DNA from: Eledone cirrhosa
Lineage: Eukaryota
Direction of reading: 5' to 3'
Assembly (NCBI GenBank): GCA_964016885.1
Contig: OZ024746.1
Span: 35,588,001 to 35,652,000, forward strand
DNA: 64,000 bases
Positions 3,879 to 49,690 of this stretch are shown one piece after another. The translations under genes were made by a program, and so were the position numbers. How positions within the stretch are numbered: position 1 is the first letter of the stretch; the number at the start of each line of letters is the position of its first letter. The notes beneath the pieces were generated by a model. It was not told the DNA's origin. It saw nothing but the letters and a program-made list of their open reading frames with translations, and made no database searches.

Positions 3879-4339
3879 GCAAAAGTTCTATTTAAAATTG
3901 TTGGGATACAACAAGTAAATATTTTTTATAACTGATATAAAGCACTCGACAAATATTTGGAGTAGATATACGATATTAATAAATGGAAACTATATTTATA
4001 AAACCATATTTATTTCATTATACACATTTCAGGGATACCAAATTAAATTATGGTATGCCTTCATCAGACAAAATACAATATATAACAGTTTTACAAATAA
4101 GCTTTGACGTACCCTATTAAAATGCAACCATTATTTTTGGAAGTCATCCGGTCTATCCGGATGACTTCCAAAAACAATGGTTGCATTTTAATAGGGTACG
4201 TCAAAGCTTATTTGTAAAACTGTTATATATTGTATTTTGTCTGATGAAGGCATACCATAATTTAATTTGGTATCCCTGAAATGTGTATAATGAAATAAAT
4301 ATGGTTTTATAAATATAGTTTCCATTTATTAATATCGTA
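3879..4339. mobile_element. Fold-back mini-element derived from the 3' end of the Naiad-like family at 46.0-49.7 kb
   Basis: Arms ~3968-4151 / 4157-4339 are almost perfectly complementary (5-nt loop tctat); tail 3879-3967; sequence matches 49480-49690; (TA)n both sides. Confidence 0.9.
4233..4297 (+). ncRNA. Minimal type I hammerhead ribozyme (mirror copy 4011-4075, minus)
   Basis: tattttgt-CTGATGA-aggcatacca...tggtatccct-GAAA-tgtgta-TA-atgaaata; 8-bp stem I with G:U pairs, AUA triplet. Confidence 0.75.
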
Positions 4340-5212
4340 TATATATATATATATATATATATATATATATATATATATATATATATATATATGCATGTGT
4401 GTGCGTGAGTGTGTGTATGGGTGTGTCTTTGTGTGCGTAGAGTGTGTGGCTGTGTGTGTGTGAGAAAGATATATATAGAGATACATGTGGAAGGAAAAAG
4501 AGGAGAAATAGTAATATTACAAGGAGGAAGAAAAGAGCAAAGACAAAAGGAGTATTGAAAGCGTAGAAATAAATATATAAATTAATGAACAAAATAGAGT
4601 AGGGTGTAGAAGTTACGGAAAGGAAGAAATAGTTTGTAACATGCGTTTTTACACTGATGTATTAATTGATTTGAAGCCATCATATTAATTTGCACAACCA
4701 TCCCCACTATCAGTGTCCTACAGATTTTAAATAGAATAATGTAATTTTTTGGAATTCTATTCAAATTTTTATTAATAGCTTTTTGCTTTAAGGAGGAAAT
4801 TGCGACAAAATCCGACATTCCAACCAGACCTGTAATGGACGGATTGTCATATCATTCACCATGTTCTTTCCTCTTTATAATCTGTTTCATGCTCAATGCT
4901 CCTTCTCCCCTAAGACATGACCGCCAGACTCTTTATTTTTTCCATTTCTCTTCCTGCTACACTTTAACGTTTTGTCATATTTATACAAATCTCGCTTTCT
5001 TTCGCTGACTGTTTGAATACAATTCCCCATCGCTTACACAAATATCCCATTCACCACCCTTTCCCACGTTTTACACCAGTCTTCTCTCATCTCATATCAT
5101 TCTAATATCTCCTATCCATTACTCAAGCTCCATACACTATGTTAGTCTCTCTCTATTTCTGTATTCTGCCTGTCTCTTTCTGTCTCTCTCTCTCACTCAA
5201 TCTCTCTCCCCC

Positions 5213-5308
5213 TATCTATCTATCTATCTATCTATCTATCTATCTATCTATCTATCTATCTATCTATCTATCTATCTATCTATCTATCTATATATCTATC
5301 TATCTATC
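5213..5308. repeat. (TATC)n microsatellite
   Basis: Direct reading. Confidence 0.95.
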
Positions 5309-5309
5309 T

Positions 5310-45444: not shown

Positions 45445-45925
45445 ATTTTTAATAGAAATACTATTAAAATGTTTTACTCAACGACTCCTAACCTTTCACA
45501 CAACATCACAGCTTCAAATTTAGCTAAACTACCTAGCCGTAGGAACACGTGCAACCCTGTAGTTAGTACTAACTGTAATTGTAGGAATCGGGTTGACTGC
45601 CCCCTATCCGGGAAATGCCTCTCTAGTAACATTGTCGTAATTACGGTATGTGCGCATTTCTTCTAAGTTAAATTTTACACCTAATTGTGTATGGCTGATG
45701 GTATATTTAGTCAGTTTCTACATGCTGTCGAAATGTTGGATAAATACTCGATTGAGGCCGCCGCGAAGAGGCTACGTTCGGTTATTTGTCGGAGATTTCC
45801 CCATAGGAGCATTTATTCTTATAGATTGTTCTCATTGATTTTTTGATATGGTTAGTTATGCTAATTAGAATAAGAAATAGTATATATTTTATTATCTGAT
45901 GATTCTAAAGACATGATCTATGATA
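45445..45925 (+). mobile_element. Internally deleted Naiad-like fragment fused to its 3' UTR
   Basis: IFNRNTIKMFYSTTPNLSHNI...CNCRNRVDCPLSGKCLSSNIV, then sequence homologous to 41980-42265. Confidence 0.8.
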
Positions 45926-46020
45926 TATATATATATATATAAATATATATATATATATATATATATATATATATATATATATATATATATATATATATAT
46001 ATATATATACATATATATAC

Positions 46021-49000
46021 AATATTAAATAAATGGAAACTATATTTATAAAACCATATTTATTTCATTATATATATTTCAGGGATATCATATTAACAAT
46101 ATGCTATGCCTTCCTCAGACAAAATACAATATAAACAGTTTTATAGATAAATAGATTTGACATACCGTAACAACATCGACTTGTATTTGAAAAGTTGAAT
46201 TGGCAGTGAAAAAATTGTACACAGAGAGAAAGAAAGAGAGAAAAGGAAAGAAAGACAGAAAACGAAGAAAAAGAAGAAAAAAAGAAGAAATGCATGGAAC
46301 AAAATAGAGAGATGGAAAGATAGATAAAGAGAAGAACTTCATGTAAAGAAACAGATATATATATATATATATATATAGAGAGAGAGAGAGAGGAAATAGA
46401 GATAGATACATATATATAGAAAACTAGGTAGTGGGACGTCCGTTGAGTAAACGTATCAATGATACATTTATTTATTTATTTATTTATTTAGCTCTAGTAT
46501 TAATGTAAGGGAGATATATGTGGTTAGGAAAGAAACCAGCTGTTATATAGAGAGAAAAATTAAAAATAACCAGACATAGGCGAGGCATAAAACCCTATGT
46601 TTTAATGTAGAGGTATTAGTATGTATAAAAACCAGCCACTATATTGTAAATATTAGTATTCCTGAATGAGACATGTATCCATAATGTGTGAAAAGTAATG
46701 ATCTTATGTTTAGTTTTTTTTAAAAATTCATATGTTTATGTGATAACATCTATGTGAATTTACATGATCAACTTTGCAAACCCTAAGTTCACGGAAAACA
46801 TTCTCATTGTGCTATAAAAATTTAAGTATACATATATGTGTATATATACACACAAATATATATAGAGTAAATATTACTACTATTCCTGTCTTTACTCTAC
46901 AAGATTATCTATCAAGCAGAAATAGAGAGCAGATTTCACTATACTAATAAAAAAAAAATATCAGAAACAAATCCAAAAAATAACAATAATAATAATAATT
47001 AAAAAATATTACGAAAGAATATTACATATTAAAAATATTACATATTAAAAATATTAAAAATAAAAATATTAGAAAATACTACAATAATAAAAATAAACCA
47101 CAAAGATCAACCCTTCAAAATTAATTGACAATATATTGCCAAGTTCATTATAAGCATCAGAGTCGAAAACCAGATAAAGCCAAAAATTATTTATCAAATC
47201 GCATCTAGCAAAGATCATTTCAAAAAGTTTAGGATGCCCATTTGGTCTACATGTGTTCTTATATTTAATATAGAAGTTTATCTAGTGTAACGTTTATTCG
47301 AAATATTTGGAGCATCAACTTTTAGGGTAGCTTAATTTTTCATGAAGAATGTTTAAATAAAAATAAAAATAAAAATAAAAAGAAGAAAAAGAAGAAATCA
47401 AAGATTTATCGGCTAGTTTCCCATATAATTATAAATCAAACTAAATATACTACATTTTAAATTTAAATTTATATTTAAACGTTGAGTTTAATCTATGTTT
47501 GCAGCAACTGAATAAATTTGTCCGTAGATTAAGGGAATTTTTAGATTTTAGTATAAAGAATATCTCCTCTGCGCAGAGGTCACATGTCTCAGAGGATGAA
47601 TTAAAAGGAATCCCTCTTGAGACTATATTCCAAGCCGTCGAATATCTAACGTTATCTAGCTTAAGTTGCCAGAGTACGCCTGATAGTGCCGTTGAAGATT
47701 TTTTGCTTGGATCTGTGAAAGCATTCTTGTGGTTATTATAGCGAAGTTTAAATTCCGTCGATGTGGAACCGACGTAGTTAAAAGAATTAGAGTCAGTTTT
47801 AACATTACAATTGTATACTATATTTTTAACTAAGCAGTTGTTATTTAACGGACATTTAGATCTATCTCTACAGTTACATTTGTTAACTTGTATATTATTT
47901 ATGCTATTATCACTAGGTTTTAAGTTCCTATTATTTATTCTATTAATATTTTGTGCTAAATTTTTGGTGGATGAGTAGGTTAATTTTATTGTATGTCTAT
48001 TGAAAATTGAGTGATACCTATGTGTTCTAGGGAAGCGATTATCAAGAGCTTTAAAAAATAGTTTAGCGATGTGGGTTTTAATGTTTAGTGAGAAAGGGGG
48101 GGCAAACCAAATTATGTTCCTAGTTCTATTTCTTGTTTGGCCTTTGGAATTATTGCAATGCTTTCTATTATAGTTGTTAAGGTTGTTGCCGTAATTAAAA
48201 TAGTTGTTATTTTGTTTAGTTTGTCTATCATTATCTATGTACATAATCTTATCAGCATATCCTGCTCTAGCTAATGCTTCATTGTAGTATTGGGCTTTTT
48301 CGTCGAAAATCTTTCTATTCGACGAGATCCTAGAGATACGTTTTTGAACAGAGTTTACTATAGTGTTTTTGACAGATCTGGGGTGGTTAGAGTTAAAGTT
48401 GACATAGTTTAAGTTTTCATTCAACTTGTGAAAAGGATAGTGAAGACATGTGTTGAGATTTAATGTTATATCTAGGAAATTGACTATTCTATGGTTGTTC
48501 TCAATTTCTATTTTAAGATTAAAGTAATTAAAAAATTGTGTAATTTGTTTACATTTTCTATTTAGTTCAGAGTTATTATTATCAATATATAGAGATCTAG
48601 GATCTCGTCGAATAGAAAGATTTTCGACGAAAAAGCCCAATACTACAATGAAGCATTAGCTAGAGCAGGATATGCTGATAAGATTATGTACATAGATAAT
48701 GATAGACAAACTAAACAAAATAACAACTATTTTAATTACGGCATCAACCTTAACAACTATAATAGAAAGCATTGCAATAATTCCAAAGGCCAAAAAAGAA
48801 ATAGAACTAGATTTTTATAGCACAATGAGAATGTTTTCCGTGAACCTAGGGTTTGCAGAGTTGATCATGTAAATTCACATAGATGTTATCACATAAACAT
48901 ATGAATTTTTAAAAAAAACTAAACATAAGATCATTACTTTTCACACATTATGGATACATGTCTCATTCAGGAATACTAATATTTACAATATAGTGGCTGG

Positions 49001-49690
49001 TTTTTATACATACTAATACCTCTACATTAAAACATAGGGTTTTATGCCTCGCCTATGTCTGGTTATTTTTAATTTTTCTCTCTATATAACAGCTGGTTTC
49101 TTTCCTAACCACATATATCTCCCTTACATTAATACTAGAGCTAAATAAATAAATAAATAAATAAATGTATCATTGATACGTTTACTCAACGGACGTCCCA
49201 CTACCTAGTTTTCTATATATATGTATCCATCTCTATTTCCTCTCTCTCTCTATATATATATATATCTCTGTTTCTTTACATGAAGTTCTTCTCTTTATCT
49301 ATCTTTCCATCTCTCTATTTTGTTCCATGCATTTCTTCTTTTTTTCTTCTTTTTCTTCGTTTTCTGTCTTTCTTTCCTTTTCTCTCTTTCTTTCTCTCTG
49401 TGTACAATTTTTTCACTGCCAATTCAACTTTTCAAATACAAGTCGATGTTGTTACGGTATGTCAAATCTATTTATCTATAAAACTGTTTATATTGTAATT
49501 TGTCTGAGGAAGGCATAGCATATTGTTAATATGATATCCCTGAAATATATATAATGAAATAAATATGGTTTTATAAATATAGTTTCCATTTATTTAATAT
49601 TGTAAATATACTCCAAATACTTGTCGAGTGCTTTTATATCAGTTATAAATATTTACTAGTTGTAACCCAACAATTTAAATATAACTTTCC
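46021..49690 (-). mobile_element. 5'-truncated Naiad-like Penelope element with inverted, internally deleted second arm
   Basis: Coding arm 46021-48597 (-). 48597-48810 is the reverse complement of 48120-48334, and 48811-49601 is the reverse complement of 46021-46820. Tail to 49690. Hammerheads (CTGAGGA, TATATA) at 46061-46126 (-) and 49496-49561 (+). Confidence 0.9.
47450..48597 (-). CDS. Naiad-like PLE RT thumb plus GIY-YIG endonuclease (5'-truncated, frame open)
   Basis: VNFLDITLNL, YVNFNSNHP, IIWFAPPFS, CNCRDRSKCP, NIVY...YVGST...RYNNH, CDLCAEE...LNLR...CKHR. The listed ORF start at 48640 lies in the inverted arm and is an artefact. Confidence 0.9.

Follow-up and report, generated by a model that had tools for sequence, protein, structure and literature searches.

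A 64,000-nt stretch of the Eledone cirrhosa genome (assembly GCA_964016885.1, contig OZ024746.1, positions 35,588,001-35,652,000, forward strand; hereafter the window, in whose own numbering all positions are given) was found to carry three inverted inserts of a single family, named here family A, which is almost certainly a Penelope-like element (PLE) of the Hydra clade. In each insert two arms stand head to head, both outer ends are fixed, and one arm reaches beyond the other by a tail of 86-90 nt. The reading that we favour, with a probability only slightly above one half (about 0.52), is that such inserts arise by coupled priming from both cut strands of the target, the two start sites being fixed and lying some 88 nt from each other in a single template RNA.

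Inverted repeats were detected by masked self-BLAST of the window; the output of a repeat finder was dominated by (TA)n. An earlier note on this DNA had taken two hairpins (3879-4339 and 27323-27740) and a coding element (46021-49690) to be one family captured at three sizes. Their homology was borne out by self-BLAST (A1, 3878-4337; A2, 27322-27740; A3, both ends of 46012-49688; E 1e-33 to 1e-128), and the three inserts fall into two size classes, the small hairpins A1 and A2 (464 and 423 nt) together forming one. Identity between copies was 87.1-88.7% across the ~150 nt common to all three, and between the arms of one copy it was 100% (150/150), 97.9% (137/140) and 99.4% (153/154) for A1, A2 and A3, respectively, suggesting that A1-A3 derive from three different templates about 88% identical. 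No direct tandem was detected among them by self-BLAST, all three being truncated copies; direct pseudo-long terminal repeats (pLTRs) or partial tandems are common, though not universal, in endonuclease-containing PLEs, according to the literature.

A1 reads, from its outer left end, as a 90-nt tail (3879-3968, minus strand) with a bulged stem-loop at the tail start (3944-3963, minus), the body of the tailed arm (3969-4151, minus; hammerhead motif core from 4067), a 5-nt apex loop assigned from the sequence (4152-4156) and the tail-less arm (4157-4339, plus), which has 5 nt of alternating TA in common with its flank (to 4342). A2 is arranged the other way round, with the tail-less arm first (27323-27499, minus; hammerhead core from 27422), a 2-nt apex loop, likewise assigned (27500-27501), the tailed arm body (27502-27651, plus; hammerhead core from 27553) and an 88-nt tail (27652-27739, plus; stem-loop 27657-27676). 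The difference in length between A1 and A2 is made up of a 16-nt and a 10-nt deletion in the tailed A2 arm plus a shift of the apex. A3 is more complex, its 2.6-kb tail-less arm being followed by an inverted 215-nt piece of the open reading frame (ORF), a jump of ~1.3 kb, the inverted 3' untranslated region (UTR) and the tail. The tail-less arm comprises the 3' UTR (46020-47449, minus; hammerhead core from 46118, 2-nt TA overlap at the junction) and a 5'-truncated ORF (47450-48595, minus); the short arm is an inverted copy of 48120-48334 (48596-48810, plus; 99%) joined to an inverted copy of 46018-46824 (48808-49604, plus; 98%; hammerhead core from 49504), and ends in an 86-nt tail (49605-49690, plus; stem-loop 49610-49629). 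No microhomology could be demonstrated at the internal junctions of A3.

The tail-less arm ended in the motif AATAT(C/T)GTA followed by TA-rich DNA in 3/3 copies, and the opposite arm ran on for a further 90, 88 and 86 nt in A1, A2 and A3, both as the earlier note had described. That note had supposed a single constant end; the tailed ends proved equally fixed, with the same motif and then (TA)n in 3/3 copies, giving two fixed ends in place of one. TA-rich DNA adjoins 6/6 arm ends, one flank being degenerate, and the tails are 89.5-95.5% identical to one another, with no shared reading frame. Microhomology to (TA)n at the tail-less junction, also proposed before, was present as an overlap of 5, 4 and 2 nt in A1, A2 and A3. 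It extends to the 13 local inverted inserts sampled from the masked self-BLAST, in 10 of which 4 nt or more of alternating TA at this junction belong to the template itself, against an expectation of 0.106 per junction when (TA)n is joined to the arms at a random point (P = 4e-8; counted by family, 8/10, P = 6e-7). These overlaps support an internal start that is fixed and has microhomology to TA.

The one-sided extension recurred throughout the window, being present on exactly one arm in 13/13 inverted inserts, and the same one-tailed design was seen in about ten families. An edge-anchored scan of 201 probes returned 27 with an inverted partner, which on manual reading were classed as one-tailed outer ends (12), TA runs inside elements (9), simple repeats (2), pairs of separate copies (2), one weak case and one symmetric, microsatellite-like palindrome of 110 nt at 44.4 kb; no PLE-like insert with two tails was among these 27, and the scan missed one old insert (14.3 kb). 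Arm identity within inverted inserts spanned about 76% to 99%, with indels, and several apexes were nearly perfect hairpins with loops of 1-5 nt. Among the variable alignment columns, 24/27 in family A and 17/31 in family D (the one-tailed hairpins at 30.1 and 37.3 kb) split by copy and none by arm type in either family, from which each palindrome is most simply derived from its own template. Five single-arm copies ended no more than about 8 nt from the tail-less site of their family (35830, 36905, 37911, 45030 and 45923), and two single-arm pieces (42.7 and 50.8 kb) ended tailed instead. The longer arm was the tail-less one in A3, where it carries ~1.55 kb absent from the tailed arm, and in the 30.1 kb insert, and the tailed one in family C and in the insert P2.

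A bulged stem-loop was found 2-8 nt past the junction in 7/13 tails, belonging to five families; its stem of 4 bp is followed by a 2-nt bulge and by an upper stem that varies. A strict scan found eight such stem-loops in the window against 0.8 +/- 0.8 in 100 shuffles, although the pattern had been set only after inspecting these tails and the shuffle controls therefore favour it. The strict-scan matches at 50289, which has no inverted partner, and at 57855, inside an ORF, were set aside as unsupported. Four of the eight stem pairs changed on both sides among the three tails of equal length, the only ones counted (8/500 shuffles), automatic alignments of all the tail stem-loops being out of register. 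A model built from these three tails, none of them of family A, placed the family A tails at ranks 4, 6 and 7 overall in the 64 kb, that is, all three within the first four non-training matches, and the stem was present in the lowest-energy fold of 5/6 tails. Inspection by eye of six published Hydra consensus sequences showed this shape after a TA-rich patch in Hydra-2_Amil, Hydra-2_Ajap and Hydra-1_Crog (one mismatch) and not at the 3' ends of Hydra-1_Amil and Hydra-1_Obim; the published consensus of Hydra-1_Ajap opens with the same stem-loop, which makes it likely, on this likeness, that the tail is the beginning of the next tandem unit. The tailed end, too, is probably a fixed start inside the RNA, as opposed to its true 3' end; of the earlier idea of a fixed priming site upstream of the true 3' end, the internal start is supported and the 3' end is not.

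A type I hammerhead motif was also common to the arms of family A, its core and stem II being recovered by a pattern scan in 6/6 arms, ~50 nt upstream of the tail-less end (in A1, from core to predicted cleavage site, 4241-4289, plus strand, by pattern scan and alignment). Helix III is short and near-palindromic, as is typical of the hammerheads of such elements (PMC4209133), and the 10-nt deletion in the tailed arm of A2 removes part of stem I. These calls rest on the earlier pattern scan, since a relaxed scan that required contiguous pairing in stem II missed family A. By motif, family A thus appears to carry the type I hammerhead of the Hydra clade.

The clade assignment draws on the A3 protein. 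The ORF stays open to 48655 (minus strand) only by way of the inverted arm, which supplies its first 20 codons, and begins just past the YRDD position, so that it encodes the end of the reverse transcriptase (RT) palm and the thumb, a CxCx5C linker and a GIY-YIG nuclease with CxxC and CxH. Two protein searches returned 26 relatives (E 4e-67 to 6e-35; two longer, 24 of nearly the same length), and the A3 protein corresponds to the C-terminal half of two full-length RT + GIY-YIG proteins (38% and 37% identity). CxCx5C, CxxC and CxH were present in 22, 23 and 21 of the 26 relatives, respectively, the last two surrounding a conserved E and N in the A3 protein; by eye, its GIY-YIG core has one cysteine, not two, and lacks CCHH. 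The full-length relatives have DKT (2/2) and RWK in one and RWA in the other, in a region that A3 lacks. A WFAPxFSLN variant is common, by eye, to A3 and the published Hydra-1_Obim, with FNPP in the two full-length relatives, in itself a weak pointer to a cephalopod as host. The published marks of the Hydra clade are a C-terminal GIY-YIG domain that lacks CCHH, a CxCX5C linker instead of CX2-5CxxC, CxxC/CxH, RWK and DKT motifs with neither IFD nor an N-terminal CxC, hammerheads and insertion into (TA)n (PMC8557442). The coding element of the earlier note is incomplete: A3 holds only the C-terminal half, lacks the RT catalytic core and cannot be autonomous, and none of A1-A3 is able to encode an active RT. 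Family A is a new family within a known clade, with a known architecture. Naiad was rejected, as it has an N-terminal nuclease and no hammerhead, and so was a non-LTR retrozyme, which consists of head-to-tail tandem units with a hammerhead; the arms here are head to head.

The mechanism as a whole is what we infer from the family identity of the protein, the two fixed ends, the single tail, the match of both arms of an insert to one template, the TA patch and the stem-loop. An RNA, tandem or circular, would read through the 3' UTR and the hammerhead and on into the next unit, whose beginning would be the tail. The GIY-YIG nuclease would cut both strands of (TA)n; one target 3' end would pair with the TA patch immediately 5' of the stem-loop, itself predicted to be bound by protein, and prime the tail-less cDNA, while the second would prime ~88 nt downstream and yield the tailed cDNA. 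Synthesis of both cDNAs would break off early, often close to one shared inner limit; fold-back or a template switch would then join them head to head, and gaps would be filled. The small hairpins are inverted pLTR pairs and would be mobilised in trans. Two starts are favoured by the single-arm ends at both sites and by the fact that either arm can be the longer. In vitro, the Poseidon element PAc cuts and extends both strands, from two internal starts that bracket the tail, as a predicted dimer (PMC11167929), and the priming inference of the earlier note largely matches this published two-site initiation.

How the site is chosen may be pictured by analogy with telomerase, of whose RT the Penelope-like RTs are the sister group. 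As a tentative possibility, which we judge less likely than not, the stem-loop would hold the RT while the TA patch immediately upstream pairs with the cut (TA)n, a dimer then firing from both target strands at two fixed sites of that RNA. If true, this arrangement would account for the targeting of microsatellites, for the tail on one side and for the palindromes through a single cis element common to corals and this genome.

As for the inner limit, the earlier note had placed the fold-back of both small hairpins near a tttggaag site and proposed a preferred snap-back there. The apexes of A1 and A2 do lie ~10 nt apart in template coordinates, and a similar pair is formed by the 30.1 and 37.3 kb inserts; the innermost ~35 nt of A1 and A2, with the tttggaag site, had no significant alignment to A3 (767/1000 shuffles reached an equal score), which folds elsewhere, ~2.4 kb deeper, and leaves two copies of family A in the comparison. 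A preferred inner limit is suggested by these two pairs, which are weak evidence, and a snap-back signal would account for it no better than a pLTR boundary or the 5' end of the RNA.

A number of observations weigh against these readings. For the element itself, the A3 protein had no match in Pfam and, by sequence search, none in the PDB; Rfam returned no hammerhead at gathering score and none among the 150 matches listed of 322 at E <=10, those listed being mostly microRNA-like and lying on microsatellites and hairpins; and the hammerhead regions, folded alone, do not adopt a hammerhead fold. For the stem-loop, it is absent from 6/13 tails, its pattern was defined post hoc, a relaxed scan gave 15 against 4.1 +/- 2.3 (shuffle maximum 11), the held-out model reached E values of only 0.03-0.26 with one unrelated match interspersed, whole-tail folding was mostly ordinary (z -2.1 to +0.2), and the lowest-energy fold of family B departs from it. 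The TA overlap fell below 4 nt in 3/13 inserts (A3, 2; P2, 1; P3, 1), that of P2 reading as 5 by eye although scored 1. For coupled priming, apex loops of 1-5 nt are formed more easily by simple snap-back than by joining two cDNAs; palindromes are unstable, and later deletions could have produced both the unequal arms and the single ones, just as arm identity could reflect conversion between the arms. The Poseidon start site, moreover, is non-homologous to the target and the same on both strands (PMC11167929), so that nothing there accounts for a strict coupling to one tail.

The most serious alternative, rather unlikely in our view, is single priming at the tail end, followed by snap-back and outward copying, after which the product is cut, or annealed to the remaining target end, at the TA patch; on this view the tail-less end would mark attachment and not priming, and the stem-loop would be a recognition signal for the nuclease. 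One tail, identical arms and the TA overlap are explained equally well, and the small apex loops better; later deletions could account for the arm asymmetries, and resolution by the nuclease is how Craig et al. explain the tail (PMC8557442), while Frangieh et al. cite an earlier finding that the tail is required for nuclease recognition (PMC11167929). The tailed arm would, however, always be the longer one, as it is not in A3 and the 30.1 kb insert, five single-arm copies terminate at the tail-less site, and both sites act as RT starts in vitro (PMC11167929). Coupled priming competes also with the improbable view that each hairpin is copied whole, as a palindromic non-autonomous element, for instance after the self-priming on antisense RNA proposed in PMC3846280, and that its arms are homogenised later. 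The similar lengths and apex positions of A1 and A2, and of the 30.1 and 37.3 kb inserts, would fit, and palindromes at inverted pLTR junctions have been described in the literature; yet 0/27 and 0/31 variable columns track arm type across copies, apex sequences differ between copies, and the A2 deletions are confined to one arm, indicating incomplete homogenisation. A foldback DNA transposon or miniature inverted-repeat transposable element (MITE), a spontaneous palindrome or an assembly fold-back artefact would suit near-perfect inverted arms in repeat-rich DNA with no visible target duplication, but is very improbable and already largely refuted by an end asymmetry that is family-specific (one arm always reaching 86-90 nt further in family A, the terminal repeats thus not symmetric), by arms that hold a hammerhead motif and retroelement coding sequence, by arm identities of about 76%-99% with indels and by a design repeated in about ten families.

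Several other elements of the window share the one-tailed inverted structure. Family B (35870-36450) has a related hammerhead and a tail stem-loop at 36361-36385; family C (53938-56512) a Hydra-type nuclease remnant on the tailed arm and a stem-loop at 56430-56454; P4 (25521-25890) a stem-loop at 25825-25849, no hammerhead being found; and P2 (1715-2940) a hammerhead variant and a stem-loop at 1777-1810 (minus strand). The two hairpins of family D (30111-30612 and 37285-37856) have identical outer ends, inner ends ~10 nt apart, a tail of ~57 nt and a hammerhead ~195 nt upstream. Family G, outside the sample of 13, has arms under 70 nt in two one-tailed inserts and one single arm (31744-31908, 32894-33077 and 45030-45100); the tailed arm body of 32894-33077 measures only ~20 nt, a near-pure twin-priming product. 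In family E, a one-tailed insert (41414-42330) and a single arm (45430-45923) with a Hydra-type linker remnant, the TA overlap is 7 nt, the tail is reduced to the lower stem and no complete hammerhead was found. A 4-kb one-tailed inverted insert of another PLE clade (56567-60643) has a tail of ~42 nt with no stem-loop, and Pfam RVT_1 (58867-59586, plus) and GIY-YIG (57172-57729, minus) remnants. Two single-arm pieces (50300-50810 and 42433-42813) end in the tail stem-loop before a microsatellite, the former showing a bulge variant of 1 nt and carrying a C-terminal remnant of Hydra type. Single (TA)n arrays separate back-to-back PLE inserts at 35530-35873, 37855-37911, 45923-46020 and 56512-56567, which suggests repeated insertion into the same (TA)n and perhaps array growth.

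Among the remaining repeats, decayed PLE ORFs at 51290-53194 and 15460-15999 have a linker of the CX2-5CxxC type, by motif like that of Neptune or Nematis, and an old, fragmented Hydra-type coding remnant lies at 18520-19621 on the minus strand. A dispersed family of ~170-190 nt, 70-90% identical, is probably a short interspersed element (7481-8090, 9446-9636, 12910-13295, 21794-21969, 27935-28109 and 40043-40238). A 263-nt direct duplication (34550-34812 and 35066-35328; 99% identity) with a hammerhead-like core heptamer inside is possibly a partial tandem. The symmetric, TA/CA-rich palindrome of 110 nt (44359-44470) has no tail and is partly repeated at 44808-44956.

The element type itself will not surprise specialists, inverted 5'-truncated copies, one-sided tails, (TA)n targeting and two internal starts around the tail being already published. 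The less familiar part is that a short TA match together with a conserved stem-loop at the tail boundary likely sets the start of copying. In the open literature searched, older subscription papers lying outside it, neither the tail stem-loop nor the TA overlap was described for Hydra elements, and the same holds for a tail of 86-90 nt and the strict one-tail rule. The formation of inverted PLE structures and the choice of microsatellites were named as open by Craig et al. (PMC8557442), and the steps after priming were left unvalidated by Frangieh et al. (PMC11167929). Template-target pairing, if true, would depart from the sole biochemical example, and the mechanism can be tested directly, the target being simple and the substrate small and well delimited (hammerhead, TA patch, stem-loop and 88-nt tail). 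For annotation, such hairpins are better filed as PLE-derived than as MITEs or microRNA-like hairpins.

L1 twin priming starts from two 3' ends of the target on a single RNA and yields an inversion, the second site being variable and the product not a palindrome; family A, by comparison, has two fixed sites and a duplicated body. For endonuclease-containing PLEs, inverted 5'-truncated copies with a 30-40 bp tail at one end are standard (PMC8557442), and family A resembles the Hydra clade in its C-terminal GIY-YIG domain, CxCx5C and CxxC/CxH, in a hammerhead close to the 3' end, in targeting (TA)n, in an inverted copy truncated at the 5' side and in a one-sided tail, the last measuring 86-90 nt against the 30-40 bp given for PLEs; it is distinct from Hydra-1_Obim, whose hammerhead and 3' end differ by eye (PMC8557442). 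The Penelope elements of Adineta vaga likewise have inverted pLTRs of ~200 nt, an optional tail on one of them and palindromes at the inverted junction, interpreted as self-priming, but their tail is 31 bp, target duplications are visible and the targets are not microsatellites (PMC3846280). Non-LTR retrozymes are similarly short, non-coding pLTR derivatives with a hammerhead, although they form head-to-tail tandem arrays and family A head-to-head pairs (bioRxiv 10.64898/2026.07.22.740005; PMC4209133). The closest parallel in the arrangement of the starts is PAc, the Poseidon element of the green anole, in which two internal starts also bracket the tail, there downstream of an uncleaved hammerhead, both strands are cut, the target is AT-rich and a stem-loop lies in the start region (PMC11167929). 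[quoted passage not shown]

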